A stretch of 32,000 nucleotides of DNA from Candidatus Saccharimonadota bacterium (GCA_016699935.1 CP064992.1:630001-662000), one strand, 5' to 3'; shown: positions 1,363 to 22,631, counted from the stretch's first letter. The notes: generated from the letters alone by a model not told the origin. Program-made: numbers and translations.

Positions 1363-2929
<1,567 letters not shown>

Positions 2930-3890: not shown

Positions 3891-3922
3891 ACTTGGATTA
3901 TACCAGGCATTGCTAGGGTAAA

Positions 3923-4978: not shown

Positions 4979-4984
4979 GGTGGC

Positions 4985-5013
4985 TTGTTTTCAGAGGGTG
5001 TTTCCGGTAAAAT
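4985..5013 (+). promoter_or_regulatory. weak promoter candidate just outside the IS right end
   Basis: TTGTTT (4985-4990), a 17-nt spacer, then TAAAAT (5008-5013). It lies 20 nt upstream of the tRNA-Ala fragment. Confidence 0.3.
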
Positions 5014-5032
5014 ACGGCGGTAGTTTGGTTGA

Positions 5033-5076
5033 GGGGTGATAGCTCAGTTGGCTAGAGCACCTGACTAGCAAGCAGG
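5033..5076 (+). pseudogene. tRNA-Ala 5' half fragment (acceptor 5' strand, D-arm and anticodon arm only)
   Basis: This 44-nt stretch matches the first 44 nt of the intact tRNA-Ala at 5201 with 4 substitutions. The anticodon is mutated from TGC to AGC. No T-arm or 3' acceptor strand follows. Confidence 0.6.
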
Positions 5077-5200
5077 TGAGAAGTGCCAGCGGCACTTGCA
5101 AGGCAACTTTTCAGATTTCAAACTTGTTTGAAGTATGCTTTTTGAGGGGTCGCGGAACGTGACCCGGCGGACCCCGTCATTAACAATCAAATTTGGTCTT

Positions 5201-5277
5201 GGGGTGATAGCTCAGTTGGTTAGAGCACCTGCTTTGCAAGCAGGGGGTCCGGGGTTCGAGTCCCCGTCACTCCACCA
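5201..5277 (+). tRNA. tRNA-Ala(UGC)
   Basis: Manual cloverleaf: GGGGTGA/TCACTCC acceptor with the G3:U70 Ala identity pair. D-arm GCTC-AGTTGGTTA-GAGC, anticodon arm CCTGC-TTTGCAA-GCAGG, T-arm CGGGG-TTCGAGT-CCCCG. CCA is encoded. Confidence 0.95.
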
Positions 5278-5284
5278 AGGTTCT

Positions 5285-5353
5285 AATGAGACAAAACTAT
5301 CAGTTTTTCTCATCGCGCCGAGAAACGGAATGAATCCGTTTCGCGGGCTGCTC
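5285..5353 (-). repeat. two-hairpin module, copy A (inverted orientation relative to copies B and C)
   Basis: The reverse complement reads GAGCAGCC-[hairpin GAAACGGA/TCCGTTTC]-CGCGATGAGA-[hairpin AAAACT/AGTTTT]-TCTCATT. It lies 8 nt downstream of the tRNA-Ala CCA end. Confidence 0.65.
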
Positions 5354-5519
5354 TTTCGAAGCGCAGGACAGTGGTATTCATGGGGCGCAGTGCCTCAAAG
5401 CACAGCGTCTCCACCATTCGATTCACTTGTTCGCTTATGGTAAACCATTGACGTTCGGAGTTGAATGCTCCCAAGTAAGGACAATAAGCAAATTAATAAT
5501 TCAATTAGATCTGACTGAT

Positions 5520-5595
5520 GGGCGATTAGCTCAGCTGGTTAGAGCGCGTCACTGATAATGACGAGGTCGGAGGTTCGAGTCCTCATCGCCCACCA
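5520..5595 (+). tRNA. tRNA-Ile(GAU)
   Basis: GGGCGAT/ATCGCCC acceptor, D-arm GCTC-AGCTGGTTA-GAGC, anticodon arm CGTCA-CTGATAA-TGACG, T-arm GGAGG-TTCGAGT-CCTC, with CCA encoded. The 3' strand of the T-stem is one C short (CCTC instead of CCTCC), which is consistent with a homopolymer undercount. Confidence 0.85.
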
Positions 5596-5619
5596 ATCAG
5601 AGCTAATTGTCAGTTCATT

Positions 5620-5671
5620 TCTCGGTAGAGATTATGGTGAGGTCGGAAGTTCAAAGTCCTCATCACGTACC
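5620..5671 (+). pseudogene. degenerate copy of the tRNA-Ile 3' part
   Basis: GAGGTCGGAAGTTCAAAGTCCTCATCACGTACC (5639-5671) aligns with GAGGTCGGAGGTTCGAGTCCTCATCGCCCACC of the intact gene, with several substitutions and one indel. It is preceded by a faint D-arm/anticodon-arm remnant (CTCGGTAGAG, ATTATGGTG). Confidence 0.5.
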
Positions 5672-5775
5672 GTACATGTCATATTCTGCAAGTGCGGAAT
5701 TTTTGTGATATATATTACAAACACCTGCCGCATTGTCAGGGGCGAGGGTGTTGCAAAAACGACTACAGGTAGGGG

Positions 5776-5804
5776 TTGACCGCCCCTGTAAAAGAGAGTA
5801 GAAT
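5776..5804 (+). promoter_or_regulatory. sigma70-type promoter candidate for the 23S-5S unit
   Basis: TTGACC (5776-5781), a 17-nt spacer, then TAGAAT (5799-5804). It lies upstream of the 5' strand of the 23S processing stem (6137-6155). Confidence 0.45.
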
Positions 5805-6645
5805 TGTACGGATGCTTGAGTTTAGACAGTGAGGCTTCGGTAATACCGGCCAAACGGAAATAAACCGCCAAGCTTTAAGCTTAAACTCAAGCTAAAAACG
5901 CATCGTCGTCTTTTCTTTTTCGAAAGATATGGACACGGTGAAGTGTCTTGAGTCGCATTTTAACAAGTCAAATATGTTAGAGAAGAGAATTTGTTCGCTC
6001 GACATCGCTCGGGGTACCCCCTCGAGAGTTACAGCGAACAAGAAAGCAAGATTATCTGTTTTTCGAACAGATAATCACAGAAGACAAACGGCTATTGATA
6101 TTGATCACGGTGGTTTTCAAATTGCCATACGTGGTACATACCAATAACCAGTCAACCCGGCCCCTATTTTTACGAGTAGGAGTCCGGGATTGAACTCGAC
6201 CGCCGCAAGGCAGCTGAGTTCAATTGCACAAATGCGGAACAAACGAAGTTTGTTCTCGTTAAATCAAGCTCTGACTTTTGACGGATTTATTCCGGCAATA
6301 GTCTGTCCGCTAGAGGAAAAAGAGCAGCGAATCGACGAGGAAAATGTAGTTTTGTTTCGTTTTCGTAAAAAGTTACTCAAGCGCACACAAAGGATGCCTT
6401 GACATGTAATACCGAAGAAGGACGTGATGAGCTGCGAAAAGCTCCGGGGAACAGCCAAATATGTTTTGATCCGGAGATGTCCGAATGGGGAAACCCGGCT
6501 GGAGTAATGTCCAGTCACCGCTATCTGAATATATAGGATAGTGAGTAGGTAACCGCCTGAACTGAAACATCTTAGTAGGGCGAGGAAGAGAAAGTAAACA
6601 ACGATTCCGGTAGTAGTGGCGAGCGAATCCGGAACAGCCCAAACC

Positions 6646-6828
6646 TATTTTGCTTTTGCCTGGTAATTTATTACTGGCAAATAAGTTGGTAGACGAATGT
6701 AAATTACGGGGTTGTGACATTGCAAACATCCTTGTGTGGGAGTCCGCTTCGGCGGGAGTCCACACGAGGCAGCTAGATCTACCAGTGTCTAGCATAAGGT
6801 CAGAAATTGATGAGGCGAGCAGAAGCAA
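6646..6828 (+). other. 23S domain I expansion (about 180 nt where E. coli has about 30 nt, roughly E. coli nt 271-305)
   Basis: It lies between CAGCCCAAACC and CTGGAAAGTTGCGCC. It contains a UUCG-capped hairpin, GTGTGGGAGTCCGC-TTCG-GCGGGAGTCCACAC. Confidence 0.6.
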
Positions 6829-6896
6829 CTGGAAAGTTGCGCCATAGACGGTGATAGCCCGGTACGCCAAGTTTCATCAACCTTATATTTGCAAAC

Positions 6897-7049
6897 TTGC
6901 GTGGGACGCAAGATTTAGCAGACAAACAAATAGCATTTAGCAGAAATTGAGCAGCTATCAGGTTGCAGACGAAAACATCTGAAACCTGAAAAATGTTAAA
7001 TTCTGTCATCCGCGATTTGGTGCCTGATAAATCTCGCGTTTTACGCGAG
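6897..7049 (+). repeat. 153-nt TIR-bearing insertion element in 23S, copy 1 (domain I)
   Basis: It interrupts conserved 23S sequence between GGTGATAGCCCGGTACGCC... and ...GTCGAGTAGGTCGGGGCACGTG. It has the same length as the element at 7856-8008 and aligns with it over the full length. Its ends are inverted repeats. Confidence 0.8.
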
Positions 7050-7855
7050 TCTTAGTGTCGAGTAGGTCGGGGCACGTGAAATCCTGACTGAATCTGGGGG
7101 GTCCACCCTCCAAGGCTAAATATATTACATGATCGATAGAGAACAAGTACCGCGAGGGAAAGGTTAAAAGAACCCCGGGAGGGGAGTGAAATAGAACCTG
7201 AAATTGTGTGCGTACAAGGAGTCGGAGTCCCGCCTTTGGCGGGATGACGGCGTGCTTTTTGTAGAACGATCCAACGAGTTATTTGCTACGGCAAGCTTAA
7301 GTCATATGACGTAAGCTAAGCGAAAGCGAGTCTGAATAGGGCATTCAGTCGTAGTAAATAGACCCGAAACCAGGTGACCTAACCATGGGCAGGTTGAAGC
7401 GTCGGTAAAACGACGTGGAGGACCGAACCGTAGCGAGTTGCAACACGCCCGGATGACCTGTGGTTAGCGGTGAAATGCCAATCGAACCTGGAGATAGCTG
7501 GTTCTCCTCGAAATAGCTTTAGGGCTAGCGTTGTACGGTAGCTGATAGGGGTAGAGCTCTGTTTCGGACTGGGGGTCGTAAGATTACCCACCCTTGACAA
7601 ACTACGAATACTATCAGTGGAACTACAGCAGTCAGAACGGCGGGGCTAAGCTCGTCGCTCGAAAGGGAAACAGCCCAGATCACCATCTAAGGTCCCCAAG
7701 TCTATGCTAAGTGGGAAACGAGGTGGGGTTTCTTAAACAACTAGGATGTTGGCTTAGAAGCAGCCATTCATTTAAAGAGTGCGTAACAGCTCACTAGTCA
7801 AGAGGCCCTGCGCGGAAAATGTAACGGGGCTAAGCATAGCACCGAAGATGTGAAC

Positions 7856-8008
7856 TTGTGCATAGCACAAGATTTAGCAGAAAAACAGGTAGCATGTTTC
7901 AGAAATTTTTCAGGTATCAGGTTACAGACGAGCCGTCTGCCACCTGCCAAATGCAAAATTTCTGTTATCTGCGACTTGTGACCTGATAAATCATGCGCTA
8001 TGCATGAG
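7856..8008 (+). repeat. 153-nt TIR-bearing insertion element in 23S, copy 2 (helix 45 loop, the classical IVS site)
   Basis: It is inserted between GCACCGAAGATGTGAAC and TGGTAGAGGAGCGTTC. It shares the blocks GATTTAGCAGA, CAGAAATT, TATCAGGTTRCAGACGA and CCTGATAAATC with copy 1. Confidence 0.8.
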
Positions 8009-8505
8009 TGGTAGAGGAGCGTTCCTCTCAGCGTTGAAGTTGAACCGTGAGGTTTGGTGGAGCGTGAGGAAGTGAGAATGTTGGAATGAGTAACCATAAG
8101 GCAGGTGAGAATCCTGCCCACCGAAAGAGCAAGGTTTCCTGGGCCACGGTAATCGTCCCAGGGTTAGTCGGTCCTAAGCCGAGGCGCGTAGCGTAGGCGA
8201 TGGACAACGGGTTAATATTCCCGTACTGGCATGTATTTGTTATATGTGCGCGGCATAGTAGTAGGAGCGGATTCATGGTTATATCCGTCTAAGTGCGAGA
8301 AAAGCGTACGAATGAAACGACCATCAGGTTGAATTTCGATGAAAGTGCTGACTAGAAAAGCAATATAACGCGTGGTACATGCCACCCGTACCGCAAACCG
8401 ACACAGGTGCTCAGGTCGAGAAGACCAAGGTGTACGAGTGATTCTTCGTTAAGGAACTCGGCAAACAAGCGACCGTAACTTCGGGATAAGGTCTGCCCCC
8501 TCACT

Positions 8506-8756
8506 CTGTCTATGACAGGTGAGTATGCCAGTTTTCTTTTTGAAAACCTGGCGTGAATGTAAGTTTATAACTTCTTATGTTCACGACAAATCGAACAATT
8601 TTTGAGACATATCAGAAAGAAAGCTGTCCCAAACACACTAGATGCGTTATTGCTGCAAACTGTTCCCGAAAGGGAAATGAGCAGCCGGAGCAACGAATTT
8701 ATTTCGGTGCACCGCGCGATGAGAAAAACCGTAGGTTTTATCTCATTCACAGCTAG
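8506..8756 (+). other. 23S expansion of about 250 nt in the helix 63 region
   Basis: It is closed by GCCCCCTCACT (8495-8505) pairing with AGTGAGGGGGC (8757-8767). E. coli has about 45-60 nt here. It contains two-hairpin module copy B. Confidence 0.7.
8679..8747 (+). repeat. two-hairpin module, copy B (inside the 23S expansion)
   Basis: GAGCAGCC-GGA-[GCAACGAA/TTCGGTGC]-ACCG-CGCGATGAGA-[AAAACC/GGTTTT]-A-TCTCATT. Confidence 0.65.
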
Positions 8757-9207
8757 AGTGAGGGGGCCGCAGCTAAAGAACCCATGCAACTGTTTACCAA
8801 AAACACAGGTCTGTGCTAACACGAAAGTGGATGTATACGGGTTGACGCCTGCCCGGTGCTGGAAGGTTAAGGGGAGTTGTGTATGCAGCGAACTGAAGCC
8901 CCAGTGAACGGCGGCGGTAACTATAACCGTCCTAAGGTAGCGAAATTCCTTGTCAGGTAAGTTCTGACCCGCACGAATGGCGTAATGATATGGGTACTGT
9001 CTCAACGAAGAGCTCGGTGAAAGTGCATTGACGGTAAAGATGCCGTCTGTCCGCAGCAGGACGAAAAGACCCCGTGCAGCTTTACTATAGCTTGACATTG
9101 AGCCGGGTTATAACATGTGTAGTATAGGTGAGAGACTTTGAAGCCCAGACGCTAGTCTAGGTGGAGTCACCAGTGAAATATCACCCTTGTTATGATCTTG
9201 TTCTTTA

Positions 9208-9405
9208 CGGGGCCCTCAATTTGCGGAGCAAATGGAGGGCATTGATCATTTTTCATTGATAATTTACCATTAATTCTTCATTGTACATGTTTCAATTATG
9301 CATTTTAGAGTGCCAAATGAGACATGCTACCTGATCAATTAATGCAAAATGTCCAATGGTAATGGTAATGACCTCTGAATTTGATCCTCAAATTCAGGGT
9401 CCCGG
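9208..9405 (+). other. AT-rich 23S expansion (about 175 nt extra, helix 79 region near E. coli nt 2200-2225)
   Basis: It lies between CCCTTGTTATGATCTTGTTCTTTACGG and GGACCGTGTCTGGTGGGTAGTTT. It is flanked by hairpins GCCCTCAATTTGC/GCAAATGGAGGGC and CTGAATTTGA/TCAAATTCAG. The centre is strongly AT-rich and contains no ORF. Confidence 0.7.
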
Positions 9406-9710
9406 ACCGTGTCTGGTGGGTAGTTTAACTGGGGCGGTTGCCTCCTAAAGAGTATCGGAGGCGTTCAAAGGTTAGCTAACTACGGATGGAAATCGTAGTG
9501 ATAGTGTATACGCATAAGCTAGCTTGACTGTGAGGCCTACAAGCCGAGCAGGGACGAAAGTCGGAGTAAGTTTTCCGCTGTCAGTACATTTGTACAAGAG
9601 TGTGGTATCGGCAGCGCTTTCGGATAAAAGTTACGCCGGGGATAACAGGCTTATAGCATCCAATAGTTCACATAGACGATGCTGTTTGGCACCTCGATGT
9701 CGGCTCATCT

Positions 9711-9741
<31 letters not shown>

Positions 9742-9769
9742 CGGCTGTTCGCCGGTTAAAGAGGTACGT

Positions 9770-9803
<34 letters not shown>

Positions 9804-10266
9804 TTATATCCGCTGTGGACGCAAGGAAATTTGAGAGGATCTACCCCTAGTACGAGAGGACCGGGGCGGACGCACCGCTGGTGTATCAGTTGTTCTACCA
9901 AGGGCATTGCTGAGTAGCTATCGTGCGGAATAGATAAGCGCTGAAAGCATATTAAGCGCGAAACTAGCCTCAAGATTAGATTTCCCTATGATCCCCCAGA
10001 AAGACTATCTGGTTGATAGGCGCAAGGTGTACGCACAGCAATGTGTTTAGCCGAAGCGTACTAATAGGGACATTGACTTTTTACGACCTATGAAACGTGC
10101 ATTTTACGTGCATGTTTCATAGGCAAAAAGTGCATTGACTGGTTATTGGTGTGGTTTTACCATACTGGTAGCAACGTTTGTTTACATTGCTAGCTCTTTT
10201 CTAACATCCGTCTACTTTTGTAATGGACATCGACTGGCTCCGTCTCAATCTACCACTGATTGGGAA

Positions 10267-10337
10267 GAGCAGCCGGAGTCGAAAACTACGTTTTTCGACC
10301 CCGCGCGATGAGAAACCTGTGCAACAGGTGTCTCATT
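10267..10337 (+). repeat. two-hairpin module, copy C (23S-5S spacer, 12 nt upstream of 5S)
   Basis: GAGCAGCC-GGA-[GTCGAAAA/TTTTCGAC]-CCCG-CGCGATGAGA-[AACCTGT/ACAGGTG]-TCTCATT. Confidence 0.65.
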
Positions 10338-10349
10338 AGGCGAAGCCGC

Positions 10350-10463
10350 CTCGGTGCCCATAGCGAGAGGGAAATACCTGTTCCCATACCGAACACAGCA
10401 GTCAAGCCTCTCAGCGGTTACAATACTTGGGTCTTCTAGCCCTGGGAAAATAGCACGGTGCCG
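10350..10463 (+). rRNA. rrf: 5S ribosomal RNA
   Basis: CCCATAGCGAGAGGGAAATACCTGTTCCCATACCGAACACAGCAGTCAAGCCTCTCAGCG matches the loop A / helix II-III consensus. Helix I is formed by CGGTGCC (5') pairing with GGTGCCG (3'), including two G.U pairs. Confidence 0.88.
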
Positions 10464-10475
10464 TTTTTACGATAA

Positions 10476-10906: not shown

Positions 10907-12450
10907 ATGCGTAAGAGGAGCATTACTCACGAAGGTGGCTTTACGCTACTTGAACTGCTTATATCCATGACAGTCATTGAGTTATGAGTATAGGCTTATT
11001 CAGCCTGTTTACAGCTCTTGTAAGCACCAGTACGCTCGCAAAACAACGCTCAGTTGGTGGTGCGCTGGCAAGCAATCAGAAGGAATATTTACGGTCTTTA
11101 CCCTTCGACAGCCTTGCGGTAAGTGGCGGCAGCATTATTTCGAGCTCATATATACCAGCTACAATCACCAAAAAGATTAACGGTACTACCTACGTAATAA
11201 CAACGAGTATTAGCTATGTCGATGATGCGTATGACGGATGCGGCCCATATCCAAACCTCGATTTAAAAATAAAATATTGTCGGAATTATTCATCTCCTGG
11301 CAATAGTAGCAACAACCAACTGAACGATACTAATCCCGCAGACTATAAGATTGCCCATGTTGTGGTGAAGAATTCAAGTAATACTCGTCTTGCAGCCATG
11401 GATACGCATATTGCCGCTCGCGTTGCTGAAACAGCGAGTACGACGGGTGCATTATTTGTTACGGCAACAGATTCGTCGGGCAACGCAGTCCCCGATGCGA
11501 TAATCCGAGTTATAAATACTACAACAACCCCTGCGGTGAATGTCTCGGATACTACAGATGCAAATGGTATGGCAATATTTTATGGCCTACCACCTGATAC
11601 CGGGTTGGACTATGCCATTAGTGTGGAAAAAAACGGCTATTCATCAGTTCAATCCATCCGCCCATCGGGGTCATTGCAGCCAACATATTCAAATCAAAAA
11701 ATCCTCGCGCAGCAGTCATCATATCTTGCATTTGTTATCGCACCGATGGACACAAACAGTCTTATTATAGAGACAGTCAATACCTCTGGTGCAATACTTG
11801 GGAATGTAAGGGTTCAGGTGAAAGGAGGGTATAAAAAATATACCGAAATAACTGATAACTCATATTATTATGATAATCTGTCACCAACAGATGTGCGCGT
11901 GACGACCGATGTGAATGGGATAGCAACCGTAAGCAATCTCCCGCCGATTAATAGCTACATCTTCTGTGGGGCGAGTGGATCTGGTGGTTGCGCTGTGGGT
12001 GGAACCACATACTATCTTGCGTCAGCAGTGCCGTACGGTGGAACAAATAGTCTCGCGCCCATTACCGTACCGGTAGGCAGCCAGGTAAATCCGGTAACTT
12101 TCACGCATAACGGGTCGGAGTACATACAGAAGGTGCGTCTTATCCTTACGAACAATAGCTCTTTCCCGAGAGTGTTTAGTATGAGTCCAGATACGGCCAG
12201 TCTTAGTGACAATCTTCAAAATGTAGACATAGTTTATACCGGCGCCAACTTGTCAAATGCAACCGCTAGTCTCACCCAAAATGGCACGACTTATAGCGGT
12301 AATAGTTGCGTCGCGAGCGCCACGCAGCTAACCTGTAATTATAACCTAAACGGTATAACGACAGGTGATTTACAGGTTACCATTCAGAATGCAAGTGGAA
12401 CACTAATTTTGCCAACAACACCCCTTGGAGGTTTTCGTGCCAGCCCATAA
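10907..12450 (+). pseudogene. large type IV pilin-like protein (minor pilin or tip-adhesin candidate) with two carboxypeptidase-regulatory-like beta-sandwich domains; one frameshift right after the prepilin signal
   Basis: The leader MRKRSITHEGG|FTLLELLISMTVIEL (10907-10984, with G-1/F+1/E+5) ends at a TGA at 10985-10987. The hydrophobic helix continues in the next frame as SIGLFSLFTALVST (the 488-aa ORF at 10984-12450). Motifs TDSSGNAVPDAIIRVIN...TTDANGMAIFYGLPP...YAISVEKNGY and VNTSGAILGNVRVQVKG...TTDVNGIATVSNLPP suggest CarboxypepD_reg-type folds. Confidence 0.7.
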
Positions 12451-13036
12451 AGAACAGAATCAAAATGGTTTTACCATTCTTGAATTACTAATCGTTATGA
12501 TGATGATTGGTATACTTTCAACTATCTTTTTTGTTGTATTCAAGAGCACCCTCGTTAGCTATTTAGATTTACAAAGACAGGCATCAAGTTTTGGTCAGCT
12601 CAGCAATCAGGCTGAGAGAATTGCAAATGTTCTGCGCGGGACAACGAGTATCTCTAGTGCATCGGATAATGATCTTACAGTTTACTCATATTTTTATCCT
12701 TCGGACGCCTATGTTTCACAAGTTCGTTACTATGTCGTGAGTGGTGCCACAACAAAACTATACGCGGATCTCACTCCCATGAGCGCTAACCCACCGGTGG
12801 GCACGTTGCAAAATGATAAAAAGAAGAGTTTTGTGGTAATCGATAACTTTTACCAACCCAGTGGCGGCAAACTGTATAGCTACATGAATGCAAACGGCGC
12901 ATCCTTAACAACCCCTGTTACCGATCTCAGTGTCGTGAAGAGTATCCAAATTAATCTATCAACTCAACTTGAAAATGCACGCTCACAAGACATCAACGTT
13001 CAGGTAGTATTACGAAATAAGAAGAATAACCTATGA
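12425..13036 (+). CDS. type IV pilin-like protein (minor pilin/pseudopilin)
   Basis: The N-terminus is ...KEQNQNG|FTILELLIVMMMIGILSTIFF, a class III signal with E+5. It overlaps the upstream gene. The start is ATG 12425 or GTG 12437. Confidence 0.75.
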   Translation: MEVFVPAHKEQNQNGFTILELLIVMMMIGILSTIFFVVFKSTLVSYLDLQRQASSFGQLSNQAERIANVLRGTTSISSASDNDLTVYSYFYPSDAYVSQVRYYVVSGATTKLYADLTPMSANPPVGTLQNDKKKSFVVIDNFYQPSGGKLYSYMNANGASLTTPVTDLSVVKSIQINLSTQLENARSQDINVQVVLRNKKNNL

Positions 13037-14643
13037 AAGTACACATGAATAGCCAGAGAAGCTGCAAGCAAACCTCTCTCAATAACGAAGCTGGCTTTAC
13101 TTTGCCAACAGTGTTGTCATTTATTATAGCGATGGCCATTATTACGACAACGGCCATGATGGTAGTAATGAATAATCTTACATCGAGTGGAATTATTATT
13201 GGTCGCCAACAATCGCTGCACATTGCCGAAGCTGGGATTAACTACTACTTATGGCATATGGCGCATAACCCAACTGATTATAAAGACGGGAATGCAACTC
13301 CCTCAACTCCAGACGTTAATAAGGGTTATGGACCATACGTACACGATTACATTGATGCAAATTCTCAGAAGAAAGGGACGTTTACCCTGTGGATTAAGCC
13401 GAGCAGCAGTGGCTCAACCGTTGCGACTATCCGATCAACTGCTAAAACGAATGATGGTGTAACGAGAACGCTCGAGGCTCGTATAGGCGCGGCATCCTTT
13501 GCGAGCTACGGTTTGCTTTTCTGATGTCGAGTTTTGGTTTGGTGACTCAGAAACAGCGAACGGTCCTGTTTTTTCCAATCAAGGAGTACATATGGATGGG
13601 CCGAATACAGATACGGTTGGGAGCGCCAATGCGACCTACGTCCCGAGATCGAACTATGGTGGAGATGGTTCAACAAAAACGGCGTATGGTGTAGTACTGG
13701 CGTGATTAATCCTAATTGTACAACCCGCGATAAGTCGAATTGGCTCTATCCTCGACCTACCGTTGATTTCAACCAAGTAACTGGTGCGCTTTTTGTGTCA
13801 TGAAGAAAGTCGCCTTTGCTAACGATGCCTCGACTGCTGCTTTTGCAACCCAACCCAACCCATGTAACCTTACACCTACTGTTCGTTCGGCGGCCTATAT
13901 ACCTCGCTACAGCACTAGCTCGTTTAGTACTCGTCGGGGCTATTACATAGAGCTGAACGCCAATAATACGTACGATTTGTACCCGCGTGAGTAACGAAGA
14001 TGACACGCAGACTAATCACACAACTGCACTAACACGAACGGTAGTACAAACTGGCATTACCGTACCGAGCTCAGGAGTAATATTTGTTGAGGATAACGTA
14101 TGGGTTCGAACGGCATCAAACTTTACCGGACGTGTTACGATAGCGGCTGGACGACTTGGTAATGACACCAATGCAGCCGATATTAATATCGCCGGCGAAG
14201 TTCGTTATGGGAGCAAGAACGGATCAGATGCCATTGGCCTTGTTGCAGAAAATGATGTACTAATTGCTCCATACGCCATACCTCGCACAGGAGCATTTAC
14301 ATTTGAAATCAACGCCGCGGCACTTGCGCAGAGTGGATCGGTGACATACCCGGGTACGTATAAGGTAAATACAAGCCGCTGTACACGCGGTTGGGTCAAT
14401 CCGGATCAGAAGTTTGTATACTATGGCTCAGTTGCGACCAGACAGTATTGGACATGGAATTATACCCGTTCAAGTGCTTGTGGTGATGCAGCCTATAATG
14501 CTTCGTCGAATCGATACATATCTGGAGTCAAGCAAACAACAACCGATTATGATTACAACCTATACTACGCACCACCTCCGAGCTACCCGATAACTGGGGG
14601 TTACGACATACTGAACTGGCGAGAGGTTATCACTAAACCGTAG
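13033..14643 (+). pseudogene. PilX-like large minor pilin, read through about 4-5 frameshifts
   Basis: The start codon overlaps the upstream stop in an ATGA arrangement. The N-terminus is ...NNEAG|FTLPTVLSFIIAMAIITT, which lacks E+5, followed by a PilX_N-like QQSLHIAEAGINYYLWH. The sequence continues across frames as 13033-13524, 13499-13705, about 13700-13800 (TGVINPNCTTRDKSNWLYPRPTVDFNQVTGAL), 13800-13994 and 13987-14643. Confidence 0.65.
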
Positions 14644-14769
14644 AAGCTTTTATTCGAATGTTGTAATAATTAATTGAGCGATTTAAATAACGTGTGAAAT
14701 CTTACAACATTAACAATATAACAGATACAAATCGTAGTGGATAAAACGCCAAAGCGAGCCTTGTGACCG

Positions 14770-14799
14770 TTGACTTCGGTCGAAAGAAGTTAGTATGAT
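14770..14799 (+). promoter_or_regulatory. promoter candidate for the surface-protein cluster
   Basis: TTGACT (14770-14775), an 18-nt spacer, then TATGAT (14794-14799). It is bracketed by a 9-bp inverted repeat, CCAAAGCGA (14749-14757) and TCGCTTTGG (14811-14819). A strong RBS, AAAAGGAG, lies 7 nt before ATG 14874. Confidence 0.45.
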
Positions 14800-14873
14800 T
14801 GGATAGTATCGCTTTGGTCCCACAAAGCACTACAAACAAAAACACAACAAATAAAATAAAAGGAGTTACGCAT

Positions 14874-15483
14874 ATGCGTAAAAAGCTTAGTGCACTTGTA
14901 GCTCTGTTTGCAGTCGCAGGCGTGATGCTTCCAGCATCCGTTTTGCTGCCACAAACACGAGTCTTTCACAAGTCATAAAACCCAGGTACCCTGACGTATG
15001 ATATCGTCAATGGTTCCGGCGTGTCTGTTGCGAGCCCAGCTGTGTCTTTCCCAACGACAACATTTAGTTTCTCTTGCCAGACTCAAACGGCAACGTTTGG
15101 TACTGCAAGCCAAAAAGTCAAAATCGGTAACCCAATTCTTGGTGGGGTAAAGCTTGACATCAATGCTCAAACACCTGCTACAGACAACTGGACAGACGGT
15201 GCTAAGAACTACAGCTACAAAGACTCAGCTGGAGCTGGCTGTACGAACGGTCAAATGACTATAAGCGGCGGTACGTTTACTCAGACTGCTGGCGCCAACG
15301 TTCCTACCTACACAATGCCTGGTGGCGCTTTCACGAGCACTTCTCCTGTGACGCTCTTGAACAACACCAGCACAACTGCCTGGGAAGCTGAATTGACGGG
15401 TTATACCTTAGCCAGAAGATCCTGCCGAGCAAGCTGACGGCAACTATGCCATCAACATGGTAGTATCTGCTATCTCTCAGTAG
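14874..15483 (+). pseudogene. small secreted surface protein, WxL-like (CscB-like), with compensating frameshifts
   Basis: The signal peptide is MRKKLSALVALFAVAGVMLPAS. The segment VFAATNTSLSQVIKP is readable only in a shifted frame, between the T4 run at 14941-14944 and the A4C3 run at 14977-14983. The body is the ORF at 15021-15437. The C-terminal tail SQKI/PAEQADGNYAINMVVSAISQ* needs two more shifts. The domain is homologous to the C-terminus of the 17199-19672 protein. Confidence 0.55.
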
Positions 15484-15538
15484 AAAACCATAAACAGTTC
15501 TAGAAAAATGGCTCAAAGCATGTACAGTAAAGAGCAAG

Positions 15539-17149
15539 ATGAGAAAACGCCTGCAAACGTTGGGACCGCTGCTCGTAGTAAGCATCCTGCTCTTTACCCA
15601 TGCTTCAGTCTTTGCTCAAGCTGGCTCTATGGGGATAGCTCCCGCCAACCCTCTGGTTGGTAATCTTCGTTCTCGAAGCATTTTTATTCACACCCTGAAG
15701 GGTGGTGAGACGGTGGAGGATGGCGTTCGTGTGTTTAATTACTCAAAAGAAGCCAGGACGGTTAAGCTCGATGCGGTGGATTCAATTGCTGCTGTTGACG
15801 GGTCGTTTTCTTGCAAGCAAAATAGTGAAAAGAAAACAGAGGTAGGGCTGTGGATACGACTATCCGTAAAAGAAGTTGTCGTTCAGCCCGGTGCCAACGA
15901 GACCGTGCCGTTTACAATCACCGTACCAAAAGAGGCAGGTCCTGGCGAACACGGTGCCTGTATAACAGCACAAGATACCAAGAACATTGGCTCGAAAAGC
16001 GAGGGTGGAATTGCGCTCGGTTTTCGCAACGCTATACGTGTCGCTATCACCGTACCTGGTAAAATCGTCAAACAGCTTAATATCAAAAATATTGCTATTG
16101 GGCGTAACGATAAGGGCAATTACACCGTTTCTCCTGTCAGTAAAAACACGGGCAATGTTTCCCTGGACGCAACAAGCCGCGCCCAGCTGAAGAGTATTTT
16201 TGGGCAGCAAACGCCCGTACAAAAGGCGACCTACCCTGTTATGCCGGGTGCAACAACTGGTTGGGCGTTCGAATTTAAGCGTCCATTCTGGGGTGGTGTA
16301 TACAAAGCGCAGGTCTCTATTGCCTACGATTCCGATACAAACACTTATATTGGTGACACGACTGGCCAGGAACGAAAAGTCAGGGCAAGTACCGGCTATT
16401 TCATTATGGTGCCAACCTGGCAAGCGCTTGTGGTGGAAATTGCCGTGCCACTCGCGCTCGTCTTTATTCTCATCACGTTCCTTCGTCGACGTAGGTTACG
16501 TCGTCTTGCCCATAAACGGCTTCAGAAGTATACCGTCGCACCGGGAGATACCGTGATGTCTATTGCGGAAGTACATGGGATTGATTGGAAGCAGCTTGCC
16601 AAAGTGAATATTATAAAAGCACCGTACCTCATAGAGTACGGTCAGACGCTTCTGTTGCCTCAGCCAAAAAAGCGGCTGCGGCATAGGCGCGCCGAACGTA
16701 AGGGCTCCTGGGTGGTAGACGACGCTTCGCCAAAGACGCCCACCGAACAGCCGGCTCCACTACCTGGTGTACCTCAACCTCCTGCGGTAGCGCCAGTAGC
16801 ACCTGAAAATACCTGGCAAGCTCCGATAGCTCAAACCCAACCCCTCGCTCCAGTGCCACAGCGCTATCCTGTACCGCCGCACATACCAAATCCAGCATTT
16901 CCTGAGCCGGAAGAACCTGATTTTCCTGATTGGCGTGATGGAGCGAGCGACGAAGAACTGCGCACGCTAGGTGTGCTCAAGGATAGTGCGACCATGCCAG
17001 CACTGAGTAGCTCATGGAATCTTGAAGCAGATGAACCGACATCTCCAAAACCCAAAAATAGTACGCGCCCAAAGGTGGTAAAACGAAAGCATCACGCAAA
17101 GCTCCGGCTAAGCGCTCAACACGCAAGAAGTGATTGCCGCAAATTCTAA
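15539..17149 (+). CDS. cell-surface protein, DUF916/DUF3324-like (CscA-like), with a TM anchor, a LysM domain and a proline-rich tail
   Basis: Signal peptide MRKRLQTLGPLLVVSILLFTHASVFAQA. The pattern PANP...RSIFIHTLKGGETVEDGVRVFNYSKEARTVKLDAVDS...DGSF...VPFTITVPKEAGPGEH...RVAITVPG is typical of DUF916-type proteins. TM helix at aa 294-315 followed by RRRRLRR. LysM domain YTVAPGDTVMSIAEVHGIDWKQLAKVNIIKAPYLIEYGQTLLLP at nt 16529-16660. The P-rich region is at nt 16727-16933. Confidence 0.7.
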   Translation: MRKRLQTLGPLLVVSILLFTHASVFAQAGSMGIAPANPLVGNLRSRSIFIHTLKGGETVEDGVRVFNYSKEARTVKLDAVDSIAAVDGSFSCKQNSEKKTEVGLWIRLSVKEVVVQPGANETVPFTITVPKEAGPGEHGACITAQDTKNIGSKSEGGIALGFRNAIRVAITVPGKIVKQLNIKNIAIGRNDKGNYTVSPVSKNTGNVSLDATSRAQLKSIFGQQTPVQKATYPVMPGATTGWAFEFKRPFWGGVYKAQVSIAYDSDTNTYIGDTTGQERKVRASTGYFIMVPTWQALVVEIAVPLALVFILITFLRRRRLRRLAHKRLQKYTVAPGDTVMSIAEVHGIDWKQLAKVNIIKAPYLIEYGQTLLLPQPKKRLRHRRAERKGSWVVDDASPKTPTEQPAPLPGVPQPPAVAPVAPENTWQAPIAQTQPLAPVPQRYPVPPHIPNPAFPEPEEPDFPDWRDGASDEELRTLGVLKDSATMPALSSSWNLEADEPTSPKPKNSTRPKVVKRKHHAKLRLSAQHARSDCRKF

Positions 17150-17198
17150 TAGGGCTGCTATACTATAAGTAGTGCTTACGCTTATAGGATAATCTGGG

Positions 17199-19672
17199 AT
17201 GTATAAAAACACACAAGCGGAATTCCAATTTGTCTAGACTGTTAGAAAAAGTCCAGGTATTTGGTGCCGTGCTACTTTTTAGGCCTATCATTCATTGCGC
17301 CCATAGTTGTATCGCCGAAAGCCCATGCGGCTAACTTCACAATGCGTACTGGTTACTATCTGGGCACGGGAACTACGAAGACAATAAGCGGGCTCGGTTT
17401 TCAGCCCAGTTTTGTTATGATCAAGGCTTCGACGACGGCTGGCGTCGCTGTCTTTAAAACAAGCTCCATGGCGGCCAGTACAACGGCGTTCTTCAGTGCA
17501 ACTGCTGATAATGCGGTAACGAACATATCTTTTAGCGCCGATGGCTTTACAGTGGGCACACTTGCCAATGTGAATGCAGTGAATGTGTTGTACCGCTGGA
17601 CGGCGTTTAATGGTTCAGACTGTACCGCAACGGGATACTTCTGCGAGGGAACGTATACTGGAACCGGAGTTGCCGGTAGGGCCATCACGACGGGATTTCA
17701 ACCGAATATGGTAATGGTCAAGCGATCGACGGCAGTCGCAGCGCATTTTCGCACAACTTCCATGGCGGCAAACAGGACAGAATTCTTCACTTCTACTGCT
17801 GCAGATACGGCCGGGAATTATATAGCCTCATTGTCGGCAACCGGATTCACAGTTGGCAATACAGATAATACAAACACAGCAACGTACTATTATGTTGCTT
17901 TTCGCTCAGGTGCGGGTAGTTTTGCACAAGGGACGTATACGGGTAATGCGACGTCTCGAAGCATCACTGGTCTTGGCTTCCAACCGGACTTGGTATTCGT
18001 TAAAAATAGCACAAGTGCGACAGCCAAAATCGCCGTTCCATTATGTCAGGTGATAGGCACTTCGGAGACTTAGCTAGTTACGCTAGTGATCTTGTGGCAG
18101 ATGCCACTGGTATGATTCAGGGTATGCTCTCAGATGGGTTTCGGGTTGGCACAGGAGTAAACACGAATCAGACAGGCACTACGGAGTATTGGTTCGCGTT
18201 TGAGGCGCCCCTTCCTTCGGAAGCTCGAGCGGCTCGTTTTCAATGGCTCAGGGCACGTACACTGGTAACGGGGCAGTTCGTTCCATTACTGGTATTGGTT
18301 TTGCGCCAGACCTGGTGATGATAAAAGATAACGCGGCGAACTTTGCCGTGTTTCGTATTCGGCAAATGGTAGGTAATGCCACAGCCTACTTTGCATCTGC
18401 CACTGCAGATTTTACTGGAGGGATTACCTCACTGGATGCTGGCGGGTTTAGTTTGGGGACGAGTACTATTGTGAATACAAATGGCAACAGTTATCATTGG
18501 CAGGCGTTTGGAAACGCCTATACATCGGATACAAACAGTGGGTCGGCTGATTTTGCGACAGGGGTGTATTATGGAAACGGCCTGACAGCGCGACCTATAA
18601 CTGATACCCCATTCCAGCCCGATCTCGTTGCGGTCAAGCGGAACAACACAACTGCCGGTGCTTTCCGTACTAGTGCCTACGCAGGCGATCTCAGCAGCTT
18701 TTTTGGCGCTACAGCCGAAACTGCTGGGGTTGTACAGTCACTGAACGTGAACGGTTTTACGGTGGGTACAAATGCTGCATCGAACACGGGCGCATCGCTC
18801 TACCGCTGGTTTGCGTTCAAAACGGGCACGAATTTTAGCGTGGGCACATACACGGGAACCGGTGTTGCGGGACGACAGGTGAGTGCACCGTTCTGGTCTG
18901 ATCTTATTTGGGTAAAGCGGTCGACCACAGTTGTCGGAGCCCAATTACCGTCAACTCTGACCGGAGGAAACGCGCAGTACCTGACAAATACTGCCAATGC
19001 TGCAAATATGATAACGGAATCAATGCCAGTGGCTTTGTGGTAGGGACGAGTACTTCCACAAATACGAACGGCGGCGTCTATCGCCATGCGGCGTGGCGGG
19101 TACCTCCTAACGGGGCTCTTACGGTTGATATCGTCAATGCTGGCGGCACGAGCGTTGTGTCGCCATCGGTGAGCTTTGCAAGTCTGGGGCTTGTTTTCAG
19201 CTGTACGGAGAGCACCGCGAACCTGGGAATTGCAGCGCAAAAAATACGGGTAAGCAATATGACAGCAAATGCGAGCTGGGTGCTTTCAGTTGCGCCTACG
19301 GCAGGACCGACTGGTCTTTGGGATAACACCGGCGCTACGGCACACTACGACTTCAATGATACGACAGGTACACAGCCGGGTTGTGCTGATGGAATCGATG
19401 CAGATGCGTTTGCTGGAAAACTACGTGTTGAACCATCCGCAAGCAGCCTTGCGCCACAGACTGGATGTTCATCGTCAAACCTCAGCCTAGGATCAAATCA
19501 GGATTATACCCAAGGGGTAGTAGATTCAATCAGTCTCCTTACGGCTGCGGTCGGGTCGAATACTGAGTGCTATTGGGACGTGACGGGCATTCCTTTGCGT
19601 CAAACCATCCCTGCCGAGCAGATGCCATCATCGTATAGTCTTGGTCTAACCATAACTCTTATGGCACAATGA
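17199..19672 (+). pseudogene. large secreted surface protein with six ~100-aa tandem modules plus a C-terminal WxL-like domain (CscC-like); at least 4 frameshifts
   Basis: The likely start is MYKNTQAEFQFV (ATG 17199). A signal-like segment ...FGAVLLF/LGLSFIAPIVVSPKAHA follows across a frame switch. The modules are read from ORFs 17261-18073, 18043-18318, 18243-19043 and 18908-19672. The C-terminus (LTVDIVNAGGTSVVSPSVSF...ASWVLSVAP...IPAEQMPSSYSLGLTITLMAQ*) is paralogous to the 14874-15483 protein. Confidence 0.6.
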
Positions 19673-20062
19673 GGAAGATTCTAACAGTATTTTTCATTAC
19701 ACCAGAAACTGCAGCAATGAGTATCCCGGTAACCGTCAATGCGTTGGGCGTATCTGTTAGACAGGTAATCCGGCAGATAAGCTGTTGTGCTCACCACAGT
19801 TGTCCATGATGATGGTACGTCGAGCTACGTATTGTCGCCAGGGTGTGGGCACCTTATCGTGCCTCTTGTGGCGCAACCAACTGCAAGCAATACATTAACT
19901 TCATGCCATTTGCGTTGCCAACAGAGGAGAGGCGGCAAAGATTTTTTACGCCAGCAGAGTATATTTCTTGCATCTGACCACCGTTCACAGCCGCCTGGAG
20001 GCCATGTATTGCTCGCCTCAACCGGCATGCGTTATGGGTTTCGACTGACAGGTGAGTCAAAT
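19669..20062 (+). pseudogene. hypothetical secreted protein (frameshifted), translationally coupled to the upstream gene
   Basis: ATG 19669 overlaps the upstream TGA in an ATGA arrangement. The N-terminus is MRKILTVFFITPETAAMSIPVTVNALGVSV. The frame then breaks near 19780 and continues in the 19787 ORF frame (VLTTVVHDDGTSSYVLSPG...). I recognise no motif. Confidence 0.3.
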
Positions 20063-20446
20063 ATGGTACACGATCGTATCATAGAGATTGTCTCTACTGA
20101 CATCGATGCTGTAACGGTACGTTTTTGGCCGGGTGGTCAGCAGGTGGTTATTCACTTGGATGAGACCGTTAAGGTACAGGTGGCGTATGATGCCAATCCT
20201 GACGTTGTCATGACGCTCATGCAGCTTAACGCTGATGGTAGCGTTTTGCTTCGAGTGCATTTTCCTGAACAACAACAGCTCGCTGATTCCGCGAAAGGGC
20301 AAACCGATGTATATGTGGCAACCGTGCTCGGTCTGACTGCCACAACTCTGTTCCTCTGTGTATATTTAGACTACTGGATACTCGCAAGACGGTCACTACC
20401 TCCCAAGAATTGGTGGGTTATTCATGATCATGATCCTTTTTCATAG
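20063..20446 (+). CDS. hypothetical protein with a C-terminal TM anchor (position analogous to CscD)
   Basis: An internal ATG at 20063 is preceded by AGGTGAG. The 127-aa product ends in a hydrophobic helix, VYVATVLGLTATTLFLCVYLDYWIL, followed by ARRS. No LPXTG motif is seen. Confidence 0.4.
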   Translation: MVHDRIIEIVSTDIDAVTVRFWPGGQQVVIHLDETVKVQVAYDANPDVVMTLMQLNADGSVLLRVHFPEQQQLADSAKGQTDVYVATVLGLTATTLFLCVYLDYWILARRSLPPKNWWVIHDHDPFS

Positions 20447-20466
20447 ACATGTATAACCAGAAAGTG

Positions 20467-20495
20467 TTGACATAAGCAAATTGGTGTGATAGTAT
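20467..20495 (+). promoter_or_regulatory. promoter candidate for the KGG stress-protein gene
   Basis: Consensus TTGACA (20467-20472), a 17-nt spacer, then TAGTAT (20490-20495). This predicts a leader of roughly 130 nt. Confidence 0.5.
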
Positions 20496-20630
20496 AAGCA
20501 TAATTCGAAAGGATAAGAGGGTTTCATCTGTTTGTGAAAGCAGGTGAAGCCCTTTTCTTTTGAAGCAAATATATCATATATGAGTGCGTCAGGGTCCGTC
20601 CTTGACGCGGAGACACTGGGAGGTGTTATC

Positions 20631-20837
20631 ATGGCTGGAACAAAAGCAGGCGGCATGGCCGCAGCAGCAACCAATAAGAAAAAGTACGGTAGCGACTTTT
20701 ACGCCAAAATCGGCGCAAAAGGCGGTAAAAATGGCAAAACTGGTGGCTTTGCTGCTGGTGATGCAGGTCGTGAGCGCGCTCGTGTTTACGGTGCTATCGG
20801 TGGACGCATTAGCCGCCGTACTAAAAAAAGCGCCTAA
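20631..20837 (+). CDS. KGG-repeat general stress protein (YciG-like)
   Basis: The product is MAGTKAGGMAAAATNKKKYGSDFYAKIGAKGGKNGKTGGFAAGDAGRERARVYGAIGGRISRR. It is Gly/Lys-rich with repeated KGG-type motifs. The RBS GGGAGG lies 8 nt upstream. The longer 97-aa ORF start at 20544 is unlikely. Confidence 0.7.
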   Translation: MAGTKAGGMAAAATNKKKYGSDFYAKIGAKGGKNGKTGGFAAGDAGRERARVYGAIGGRISRRTKKSA

Positions 20838-20861
20838 AGCATTGCGTTTTTGCAATTGAGC

Positions 20862-20886
20862 CTTGAGTTTAGCTCAAGACTTTTTT
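20862..20886 (+). terminator. rho-independent terminator candidate
   Basis: CTTGAG-TTTAG-CTCAAG followed by AC and a T6 run. Confidence 0.5.
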
Positions 20887-21366
20887 GCTTTTCATCTCAA
20901 AATGTATCCGTTAAACCCAAAAAACAATTAGCAAATAACAAACTAGTTCAAGATCTCAATTTCCAAAGGAAAAAATTGCAAGAGTGTGCTACTAAATGCA
21001 GTTATTTGGAATTTGTGATTTGGAACTTGGGGCTTACAATACAGCCTTGCTGAGAATGACCAAATCCCAAGCACCTATGACCGAGCAATGACTACTGGTC
21101 TAAATGACTATGTGATGCTTCAAGCTTCAAATAAGAAATTCCAAATAAAGACGAAAGTTCTAAATACCAAACGGGCTACCTAGATTCGTGAAAACCCCAG
21201 TTGCTTATGTTTTAAATCTTGAAAATGGGACTCATTGTTCTTTGCTATTTGAATTTCCAAGTTCAGTCCTATCATCATCCGTGAATTGCTTGATCATTGG
21301 TGCTTGCTGTTTTGTCATCAGTGTTTAGCTATTTGATGATATCTCCATAAATCAACACCGACCACA

Positions 21367-21876
21367 TCACCTCTTACGTCTGTACGGGCGGCAAAGACGA
21401 GAACGGGTAACATGCCAGATAGCGCCACAGTTATGGCAACTGTAGGTATGGCGGTCGGTCTGTAGGCTGCGTCCGTAGCAGGTGGGGCAAGTGGCGCGGA
21501 CATGCAGCCAGTCGCGGTAGCTATCGAGACAATCTTCTACGTAATCTTGATCTAGCCGAACACGATATTTCTTAGCCAACTCATGGGCTTTTTCCCAAGC
21601 GGCGACCTCTATCTGTAGTAGTTCAATGTCGCTTTCGTAATCGGTGTGCGCCAGGAGCGCATGACCGAGTTCATGTAGAATCGCCCAGACACCGCGCTCT
21701 TCCTCAATTCGTTCCTTCTGGTATGAAACATGCTTTTTCCCTGCGTGCCACGCAAATTGACCCGACTCAACGAAAGATAACTCTGGGTAGTCTGCGCGCA
21801 GTTTCAGCAGAAGCTGAGGAGGTCTAGGCGTACTTTTGGCAGGCATAATCGTAACATCCATAAATAACGGCTTCAT
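21367..21876 (-). CDS. HExxH metallopeptidase-like protein (ImmA/IrrE-like motif) with a C-terminal zinc ribbon; start uncertain (21876, 21861 or 21846)
   Basis: Contains VWAILHELGHALLAH plus CPTC-x15-CHNC near the C-terminus. The first ~65-75 codons of the 233-aa ORF (21367-22068) are out-of-frame ROK sequence, so an internal Met is used here. Confidence 0.55.
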   Translation of the reverse strand: MKPLFMDVTIMPAKSTPRPPQLLLKLRADYPELSFVESGQFAWHAGKKHVSYQKERIEEERGVWAILHELGHALLAHTDYESDIELLQIEVAAWEKAHELAKKYRVRLDQDYVEDCLDSYRDWLHVRATCPTCYGRSLQTDRHTYSCHNCGAIWHVTRSRLCRPYRRKR

Positions 21877-22631
21877 CGGGCGTTTCGCCGGCAGTATAGG
21901 TGGAATCTGAAGCATCGGGGTTTCGTACTGTCTCAAATCTGCAAAAAGTGCGTCTTTGAACGCGCCAAATAGTGTCCTGCGCCACCGCCAACAACTATCA
22001 CCTCGGGTTGAAGAACGGCGATTAATTGTAGGAAACCTGGCGTGAGATTGCGAGAGATTTTTTTCCATATCGCTGGGTCGTGTATCTCTGATGCAGGCTT
22101 ACCGTATGTATTTGCGATCGCCCTGCCGCCTGCAAAATCCTCCCATGGTGTCATTTTGCCTTTGTATTCAAAAAGCATAGTACGACCACCACCGTCTCCT
22201 ATGGCAGTAATGATTTCATTATTGACCACAAGAGCTTCGCCAATCCCGGTACTAATCGTTATGTATAGAACCTTGTGATAGTCTTTGATTAACATTGATT
22301 CGGATAAAGCGGCCAATTTGGCATCGTTCTCCACCAACATGGGGCAAGCAAACAACTTCTCTAAATCGCGTTGGATGGGTACCTTGCGCCAAGGAAGATT
22401 ACTAAAGCTAACGCCTATGCCTCTTCTTCTATCAAATATTGTCACCGGCATACCTACGGTACCCGCACGGAAGTCTTTGGTTTTAAAACCGTCGACGGCT
22501 ATACCAAGTTCTCGCAAGAAATCATCGTAGTCTTTCGGCGTGGGGAACTTTACAGACTCACTGATTACCCCTTCGTTTGTCACGGCAGCTACAAGTGTTT
22601 TTGTTCCTCCAATATCGATGCAGATATACAC
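21824..22631 (-). pseudogene. ROK-family sugar kinase (glucokinase-like), with a C-terminus readable only through two frameshifts
   Basis: The N-terminus is MYICIDIGGTKTLVA, with ENDAKLAALSE and ISTGIG motifs. After VVGGGAG the expected continuation TLFGAFKDALFADLRQYETPMLQIPPILPAKRP lies in a second frame. The end DEAVIYGCYDYACQKYA* (stop at 21824-21826) lies in a third. The uninterrupted ORF is 21933-22631. Confidence 0.8.

Follow-up and report, generated by a model that had tools for sequence, protein, structure and literature searches.

Four genes on the plus strand of a 32,000-nucleotide (nt) stretch of a Candidatus Saccharimonadota genome (GCA_016699935.1, CP064992.1:630001-662000; hereafter the window, with positions counted from its first letter) probably encode a divergent cell-surface display system of the WxL/WxLIP type. 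The genes lie between 14874 and 20446 and specify, in order, a small secreted protein, a WxLIP-like membrane anchor, a large secreted protein whose C-terminal domain is shared with the small one, and an accessory membrane-anchored protein. Clusters of the WxL type are regarded as a speciality of the Bacilli. About 91% of known WxL proteins come from Firmicutes, in which they have been linked with adhesion and virulence (PMC9772566), and a WxL gene cluster has been defined as at least one WxLIP and at least two WxL proteins encoded in adjacent genes (Hassan, Chaudhuri & Williamson 2023, PMC10599100).

A first reading made from the nucleotide sequence alone (the sequence-only reading) had placed the cluster in a genome resembling those of the candidate phyla radiation (CPR), and database identities agree with it. 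The 536-amino acid (aa) protein encoded at 15539-17149 matches P0065, a protein labelled 'Candidatus Saccharibacteria bacterium', with 100% identity, and the open reading frame (ORF) at 15021-15437 shows 99% identity with P0013 (IPL68_04225), which is encoded on the same Saccharibacteria contig as P0065. Judged by these protein identities, the source genome is assigned to Saccharibacteria.

The anchor protein and the module to which it belongs

The second gene of the cluster (15539-17149, plus strand) has an intact ORF, and its 536-aa product was analysed by Pfam, profile comparison, hhalign and Foldseek. It begins with a signal peptide (aa 1-26), followed by a PGBD/DUF916-like domain (about aa 29-172; 15623-16054), an HBD/DUF3324-like domain (about aa 175-290; 16061-16408) and a transmembrane (TM) helix (aa 295-317; 16421-16489). 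After the helix come a basic stretch (RRRR), a LysM domain (aa 331-374; 16529-16660) and a proline-rich, also acidic tail of about 160 aa that carries the conserved motif FPEPEE..PDWR.GASDEELR.LG.

Pfam family PF06030 (WxLIP_PGBD, formerly DUF916) scored 28.4 bits on the anchor, above its cut-off of 27.3, and 46 bits on the Acidimicrobiia member. The same family is recorded for most of 120 anchor homologues, and several of these homologues are already named 'DUF916 domain-containing protein' by NCBI. The hidden Markov model (HMM) for the second domain, PF11797 (DUF3324/HBD), gave no match on the anchor. Searched against PDB sequences, a profile of the anchor family found the solved EfmWxLIP1 of Enterococcus faecium (9i1y, and chain C of 9i25) at an E value of 3e-8. 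An AlphaFold 2 (AF2) model of residues 1-334 (predicted local distance difference test, pLDDT, 87) consists of two beta-sandwich domains and a long helix after them, and the three best Foldseek matches to this model in the PDB were 9i1y_A (E 1e-13), 9i25_C ('WxLIP ... bound to long WxL') and 9i1y_B. The alignment to 9i1y_A, a two-domain structure of 267 aa, runs over 279 columns and so covers both domains. For comparison with canonical members, 98 WxLIPs were gathered by scanning Firmicutes genomes for the motif NQIDKxxxYFDL; the same scan of viral contigs returned nothing. Aligned with these 98 proteins by hhalign, the anchor family gave a probability of 98.9% (E 1.3e-17) over 239 columns, covering template columns 48-302 of 398 and taking in both PGBD and HBD. 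An HMM of the canonical WxLIPs also matched 42 of the 52 corresponding neighbour ORFs in metagenome loci. These results show the 536-aa protein to be a true homologue of WxLIP/CscA that has both immunoglobulin (Ig)-like ectodomains and a TM helix. The DUF916/DUF3324-like character originally proposed for this protein is thus supported by Pfam, hhalign and Foldseek; the TM anchor proposed along with it is present and is internal rather than C-terminal.

What follows the helix sets the protein apart from canonical WxLIPs, which are 337-365 aa long and have a short C-terminus after the TM helix. The LysM domain (PF01476) scores 38 bits against a cut-off of 20.9 (E 1.6e-9) and was found in nearly all of the 120 homologues, the short forms of which (about 380-390 aa) stop right after it; the long conserved tail belongs to the Saccharibacteria anchors. 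Since the positive-inside rule places the basic side of the helix within the cell, both LysM and tail are predicted to be cytoplasmic, an unusual location for a LysM domain.

The arrangement of the genes recurs in other genomes, where intact orthologues were found in at least 60 loci. Four Saccharibacteria loci (L001-L004) have the order small gene, anchor with LysM, large gene, an optional gene for a 237-aa TM protein, a KGG-type small protein gene, and ROK, S1 and IF2 genes, and in these loci the large protein is intact at 1062 or 846 aa. In two more distant loci the small gene is followed by an anchor with LysM and a large gene with DUF7483. One of them (L126) has two unrelated ORFs between anchor and large gene and neighbours labelled Campbellbacteria or Patescibacteria; the other (L127) is a contig of an Acidimicrobiia-labelled metagenome-assembled genome (MAG), on which the module adjoins purine-biosynthesis and ribosomal protein genes. 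Another family member is labelled Andersenbacteria. A metagenome survey with the profile of the shared domain recovered 64 loci. The anchor gene started no more than 500 bp 3′ of the small gene and on the same strand in 43 of the 50 testable loci, which belong mostly to Patescibacteria and in one case to an Acidimicrobiia MAG, and a large domain-bearing protein was also present in 25 of the 32 loci with enough room for it. These data show that small, anchor and large genes travel together across Patescibacteria. Because L127 comes from an Acidimicrobiia MAG, the family is not confined to the CPR, and lateral transfer between episymbionts and their Actinomycetota hosts is conceivable.

The domain shared by the small and large proteins

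The first gene (14874-15483, plus strand) encodes, as the sequence-only reading proposed, a small secreted protein, which is 203 aa long once its frames are corrected by six-frame reading and comparison with homologues. It consists of a signal peptide (MRKK...ASVFA/A) and one WxL-like beta domain (14985-15480). Fifty-seven homologues of 200-231 aa cover 85-100% of this query, and the corrected protein aligns with intact homologues over its whole length, with 91% identity to P0001. The third gene encodes a large secreted protein of about 805 aa after correction (17261-19672, plus strand, from the tblastn frame map). Its existence and end agree with the earlier placement at 17199-19672; its start is uncertain, being either a TTG at 17261 or, given further shifts, an ATG at 17199. 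A signal peptide (...SPKAHA/A) is again evident, and corrected residues 1-805 align with an intact 846-aa homologue from L003 at 64.6% identity.

The C-terminal WxL-like domain of the large protein (19112-19669, plus strand) includes the sequence ASWVLSV. Its proposed paralogy with the small protein survived alignment: BLASTP of the small protein against the ~185 C-terminal aa of its large partner gave an E value of 2e-13 (37% identity over 94 aa), and hhalign of the two sub-families gave 100% probability, so that the two are paralogous. The motifs noticed at first sight, [L/V]T[V/Y]DIVN...SP.VSF, ASWVLSV and IPAEQ...Y......Q before the stop codon, are real and kept in the family. When the profile of this ~170-aa beta domain was searched against 1.84 billion representative proteins, it identified 739 clusters (at 50% identity) with E values of 1e-3 or less, 370 of them at 1e-30 or less. 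In every listed match the domain either accounts for all of a mature protein of 200-260 aa or occupies the final ~185 residues of one of 300-2000 aa, and in all 150 listed representatives it runs to the C-terminal end. The passengers in front of it vary across the family and include DUF7483, DUF2341, Laminin_G_3, SdiA-regulated, carbohydrate-binding modules and H_lectin.

Whether this domain is related to WxL was assessed with a canonical set of 136 small and 36 large WxL domains from 120 Firmicutes loci. An hhalign comparison of 111 small family members with the 136 canonical small domains gave 62.6% probability (P 7e-5, score 35.4) over 148 columns, with five blocks in collinear order: GxLsvD, W-x-L, VTLL, IPAEQ (opposite VPG) and Y...T.T. 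The highest score from 150 column-shuffled trials was 17.6, half of that observed, and a reversed alignment scored 11.9. An HMM of the family matched 5 of the 172 canonical domains at 11.4-17.5 bits against 3 of 5160 shuffled sequences at 11.3 bits or more, an enrichment of about 50-fold. At the position of the WVL in the large protein, W-x-[LIV] is present in 125 of 148 family representatives. These comparisons are suggestive of homology between the shared domain and WxL.

Several results weigh against reading the domain, and with it the cluster, as a WxL system. The domain has no model in Pfam or NCBIfam, and PF13731, the Pfam WxL family, matched none of 87 family members at E values up to 10, among them the small protein and the C-terminus of the large one; in a control, all five canonical proteins sampled were matched, with E values from 8e-6 to 3e-62 (6e-32 to 3e-62 for the four small ones). 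The second motif never has Trp and reads M/L/F-x-[LIV], the C-terminus being Y-x-[LI]-x-[M/L/F]-T-[LIV], and in the small protein of this genome even the first W-x-L is replaced by V-K-L. Sub-alignments reached only 2-8% probability against canonical WxL by hhalign, and unrelated beta-protein controls had scores of 20-22; the family aligned with the canonical large WxL domains at background level; and HMMER and hhalign placed the first Trp in different registers. A search of PDB sequences with the domain profile returned nothing relevant. The orthologue P0001 was modelled as a proxy for the small protein, and the AF2 model is all-beta (pLDDT 86.5); 9i25_A, a long WxL and the only solved WxL domain, is outside the top 50 of its Foldseek matches in the PDB. 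The best of those matches are weak (E 1e-3 to 0.2, TM-scores 0.3-0.45). Finally, three of the four cluster genes in this genome (small, large and fourth) are frameshifted, a point taken up below. By the Pfam definition and the dual-Trp motif, the domain does not count as WxL. The earlier statement that it resembles WxL is upheld for the layout, a domain that stands alone in a small protein and C-terminally in a large one, and fails for the PF13731 match, the second Trp and the placing of 9i25_A.

One way to account for these negative results is that only the anchor comes from the WxLIP family and that its partner, or a cell-wall anchor, was recruited independently in the form of a shared domain with an unrelated fold, giving a WxL-like system that works without WxL domains. 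The missing PF13731 and NCBIfam matches, the missing second motif, the position of 9i25_A and the weak hhalign results for sub-alignments and all canonical large domains would fit this explanation. It is rendered rather doubtful by the collinear full-domain alignment, with a score twice the best of 150 shuffles, by the enrichment of HMM matches over shuffled sequences, and by the same small/large, C-terminal-only architecture beside a WxLIP. Against it, too, is that PF13731 itself only just picks up a canonical large WxL, at 26.4 bits with the cut-off at 25.

The Foldseek matches of the small protein point in another direction, being to the pilins CfaB, Csu (CsuA/B) and FimG and to the cannula subunit CanA, and the best folds for the anchor after the WxLIP structures are those of the pilus chaperones CfaA, CsuC, Caf1M and FimC. 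The cluster could on this basis be the counterpart, in a monoderm cell, of chaperone-usher or Csu/CanA-type pili, a donor-strand-exchange fibre in which the small protein polymerises, the large protein is the tip adhesin and the anchor serves as a membrane chaperone or assembly platform. Such a fibre is improbable given the low scores of the pilin matches and the absence of an usher family among the Pfam matches of the cluster genes and their conserved neighbours. Canonical WxL systems, moreover, have been described as peptidoglycan-bound complexes and not as fibres (PMC9772566, PMC10599100).

In a divergent WxL/WxLIP-type display system, the reading preferred here, the large protein would display its passenger region in front of the shared domain (17330-19000 in the window; 12484-15024 in L003), which is made up of six tandem DUF7483 repeats of about 100 aa with G.Y.G.[GA] units. 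DUF7483 (PF24299) was detected in this region at 96 and 71 bits (E 3e-27). The two ORF fragments of the large gene in the window match phrog_24898 ('tail fiber protein') with E values of 2e-20 and 2e-23, the intact homologue from L003 doing so at 4.6e-51, and the repeats also match phrog_19943, a 'virion structural protein'; yet the gene is chromosomal and syntenic. The phage-like matches would be expected if the region were a prophage remnant and the large protein a phage tail fibre. All four cluster products carry Sec-type signal peptides, as judged by inspection, and the cluster keeps its chromosomal position between pilin genes and ROK/S1/IF2; a prophage origin was rejected on these two grounds and is extremely improbable. 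Other phage genes are absent, base composition is flat, and other members of the family bear passengers that are not of phage type.

Frame disruptions, the fourth gene and the genomic surroundings

Intact homologues placed on the window by tblastn revealed about 15 frame disruptions, strongly clustered within 13033-22631. They affect a pilus-associated gene (13033-14643), the small, large and fourth cluster genes and a ROK gene; the WxLIP-like gene, S1, IF2 and two pilin-like genes (488 and 203 aa) have none in this map. Four or so shifts fall in the small gene, near 14940, 14978 and 15408-15425, and NCBI annotates that gene as a 138-aa fragment only (P0013). The large gene passes through frames 2, 1, 3 and 2, with three internal shifts near 18022, ~18204 and 19016, the ROK gene has two shifts by tblastn, and the gene at 13033-14643 leaves its own frame and returns to it twice. 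Several of the disruptions are compensating pairs that restore the original frame. Recoding of the in-frame TAA at 14976 was considered as an alternative to a shift and rejected, since the homologous signal-peptide/mature N-terminus, with the conserved AATNTSLSQVIKP, is read in a different frame that is bounded by two shifts close by.

The frameshifts in the small, large and fourth genes reflect either errors of assembly or recent conversion to pseudogenes. Their clustering fits failed polishing in strain-variable surface genes, and real decay could also produce it. That the cluster in this genome consists of decaying pseudogenes and forms no functional surface complex has some, if limited, probability, the distribution of the disruptions and the fragmentary annotation of the small gene being what one would then expect. 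It has to be set against the nature of the source, a single-contig MAG of 1,226,308 bp that is most likely a long-read assembly, in which residual indels are common. Indels aside, identity to intact homologues is 55-67% (91% for the closest small homologue), there are no large deletions, frames return in a compensating manner, and the orthologues are intact in the other loci mentioned above.

The fourth gene (19669-20446, plus strand) had been read as one or two small proteins, the last of them ending in a TM helix and basic tail. A single gene with at least one frameshift, near 19790, accounts for it: its product of about 260 aa matches a 237-aa protein of L003 by BLASTP (E 5e-17), and the TM helix and basic tail at its C-terminus were found as described (...RRSLPPKNWWVIHDHDPFS). 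L135, L137 and L138 each have a homologue on the 3′ side of the large gene, all with a C-terminal TM helix, and the tail motif is shared with L135. No conserved LPXTG was found in the protein or in its homologues from L003, L135, L137 and L138. From its sequence, it is thus not an LPXTG protein of the CscD type, and would be held by a TM anchor with a conserved, presumably cytoplasmic tail. The gene is present in only some loci and is absent from L001 and L002.

A promoter-like site (TTGACT-18-TATGAT, 14770-14799, plus strand) lies 75 bp 5′ of the small gene and agrees with the consensus at 10 of 12 positions. It is the top-scoring site in the interval 10.6-21.2 kb and is a consensus match only, and the 19 promoter-like sites found are not above the 16 expected from shuffling. 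No strong terminator was found upstream of 20446. Both observations are compatible with a single operon, for which they are weak evidence.

Directly 5′ of the cluster (10984-14643) are three type IV pilin or minor-pilin-like genes with the N_methyl motif, one of them with CarboxypepD_reg, in agreement with the pilin operon reported there before. Their synteny with the cluster extends to the closer Saccharibacteria loci L001 and L002 and not to L003, L126 or L127. On the 3′ side, 20544-20837 encodes a glycine/lysine-rich small protein (KKKYGSDFYAKIGAKGGKNGKTGGFAAG...) with promoter-like and terminator-like sites of its own; it has no Pfam match and is kept 3′ of the cluster in L001 and L003. 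An ORF on the minus strand (21367-22068) encodes HELGHALLAH (HExxH) and a C-terminal CxxC...CxxC. It too has no Pfam match, is conserved as a protein of 160-164 aa in L001 and L003, and appears in the window to be fused to or overlap the end of the frameshifted ROK gene.

Further upstream the window contains an rRNA operon (1363-10466) with 16S at 1363-2927, 23S at 6366-10085 and a 5S gene. Between 16S and 23S the operon is interrupted by two minus-strand elements, a gene for a GNAT acetyltransferase (3282-3890) and an rve-type transposase that is split (4107-4851). The usual order of the tRNA genes is reversed, with tRNA-Ala ahead of tRNA-Ile. The match to 23S is 3720 nt long against a model of 2925 nt, pointing to an insertion of about 800 nt, in which no intron family or Pfam domain was detected.

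A homologue search with a 51-aa fragment of 9i25_A returned two partial proteins only and led to a contig labelled as a Klebsiella pneumoniae plasmid (L005, CP069367.1). It carries an Enterococcus-type WxL locus, heavily frameshifted and almost unannotated, in which a small WxL and a WxLIP are accompanied by a protein resembling LPXTG proteins and by a large WxL that shares 79% identity with LwpA of E. faecium. The record has the appearance of a long-read contig that was contaminated or assigned to the wrong source.

A proposed mechanism and its relation to known systems

If the cluster is a WxL/WxLIP-type display system, the anchor would be held at the membrane by its one TM helix with the two Ig-like domains outside. 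By analogy with E. faecium, the shared domain may dock on the first Ig domain of the anchor by beta-strand insertion, in the manner of a pilin subunit and its chaperone, and such docking would tether the small and large proteins at the surface of the cell wall or membrane. The docking model for E. faecium is itself an AlphaFold prediction (PMC10599100), and the title of PDB entry 9i25 describes a WxLIP bound to a long WxL. The small protein would then be a bare docking domain, and the large protein would project its six tail-fibre-like repeats, which probably bind glycan or the surface of another cell, possibly that of the host bacterium.

A more far-reaching proposal is that the cluster represents an undescribed, phylum-wide sister of the Firmicutes WxL/WxLIP complex in Patescibacteria and some Actinomycetota. 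A strand-complementing anchor would display interchangeable adhesins, in this genome phage-tail-fibre-like receptor-binding repeats, with which the cell recognises or holds host bacteria, and the cytoplasmic LysM and tail would couple this engagement to an intracellular partner. Taken as a whole this proposal is speculative and we consider it unlikely; if true, it would mean a use of LysM inside the cell and a signalling role that are absent from canonical WxLIPs.

The DUF916 annotation of the anchor was already known from NCBI records. Neither the shared-domain family nor the three-gene module in Patescibacteria nor the LysM extension was found in the searchable literature, in which no paper names both WxL and Saccharibacteria; a paper on Saccharibacteria genetics mentions neither LysM nor DUF916. 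The results suggest that this mode of surface display, known so far chiefly from Firmicutes, is represented in the ultrasmall bacteria of the CPR by a sister family that is large and unannotated. The cluster is a testable candidate for surface display and host attachment in the CPR, genetic tools being available for cultivated Saccharibacteria (PMC10633639). For the WxL field it could serve as an outgroup that indicates which features of the complex are essential, and the E. faecium WxLIP-WxL structures (released 2026) offer a template for modelling it.

Among known systems, chaperone-usher and archaic (Csu, CFA/I) pili offer a structural analogy only, a two-Ig protein combined with a small beta-sandwich subunit whose nearest folds are chaperones and pilins. 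The likeness is at the level of fold, with 10-16% identity and weak subunit scores, and the cluster differs in having no usher and no outer membrane. The Csc clusters of Lactiplantibacillus plantarum (CscA/B/C/D; Siezen et al. 2006, PMC1534035) are closer, being likewise four co-oriented surface genes, and equivalents of CscA, CscB and CscC can be named. In contrast to CscD, the fourth protein has a TM anchor and no LPXTG sortase signal; some relatives do not encode it, no similarity between it and CscD was detected, and no link to carbohydrate-utilisation genes was seen. Of the csc composition first proposed for the cluster, the layout of small protein, anchor and large protein has been retained and the assignment of the fourth protein as CscD has not, and the shared domain is a likely relative of WxL that falls outside the Pfam definition.

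The nearest counterpart is WxL locus A of E. faecium (SwpA, LwpA and DufA, the last being EfmWxLIP1). The present cluster differs from it in a shared domain that lacks the second Trp and is not recognised by Pfam WxL; in an anchor that continues beyond the membrane with LysM, and in Saccharibacteria with a long tail, where canonical WxLIPs end shortly after the helix; in passengers that are tail-fibre-like DUF7483 repeats instead of leucine-rich repeat, Ig or adhesin domains; and in its hosts, which are Patescibacteria and one Acidimicrobiia MAG rather than Bacilli. In both, the genes are adjacent and co-oriented, one small protein consists of the domain only and one large protein carries it at the C-terminus behind variable passengers, and the first W-x-L is kept in most members of the shared family. 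The anchors likewise have the same order of signal peptide, PGBD, HBD and TM helix, and are homologous by profile and by fold.

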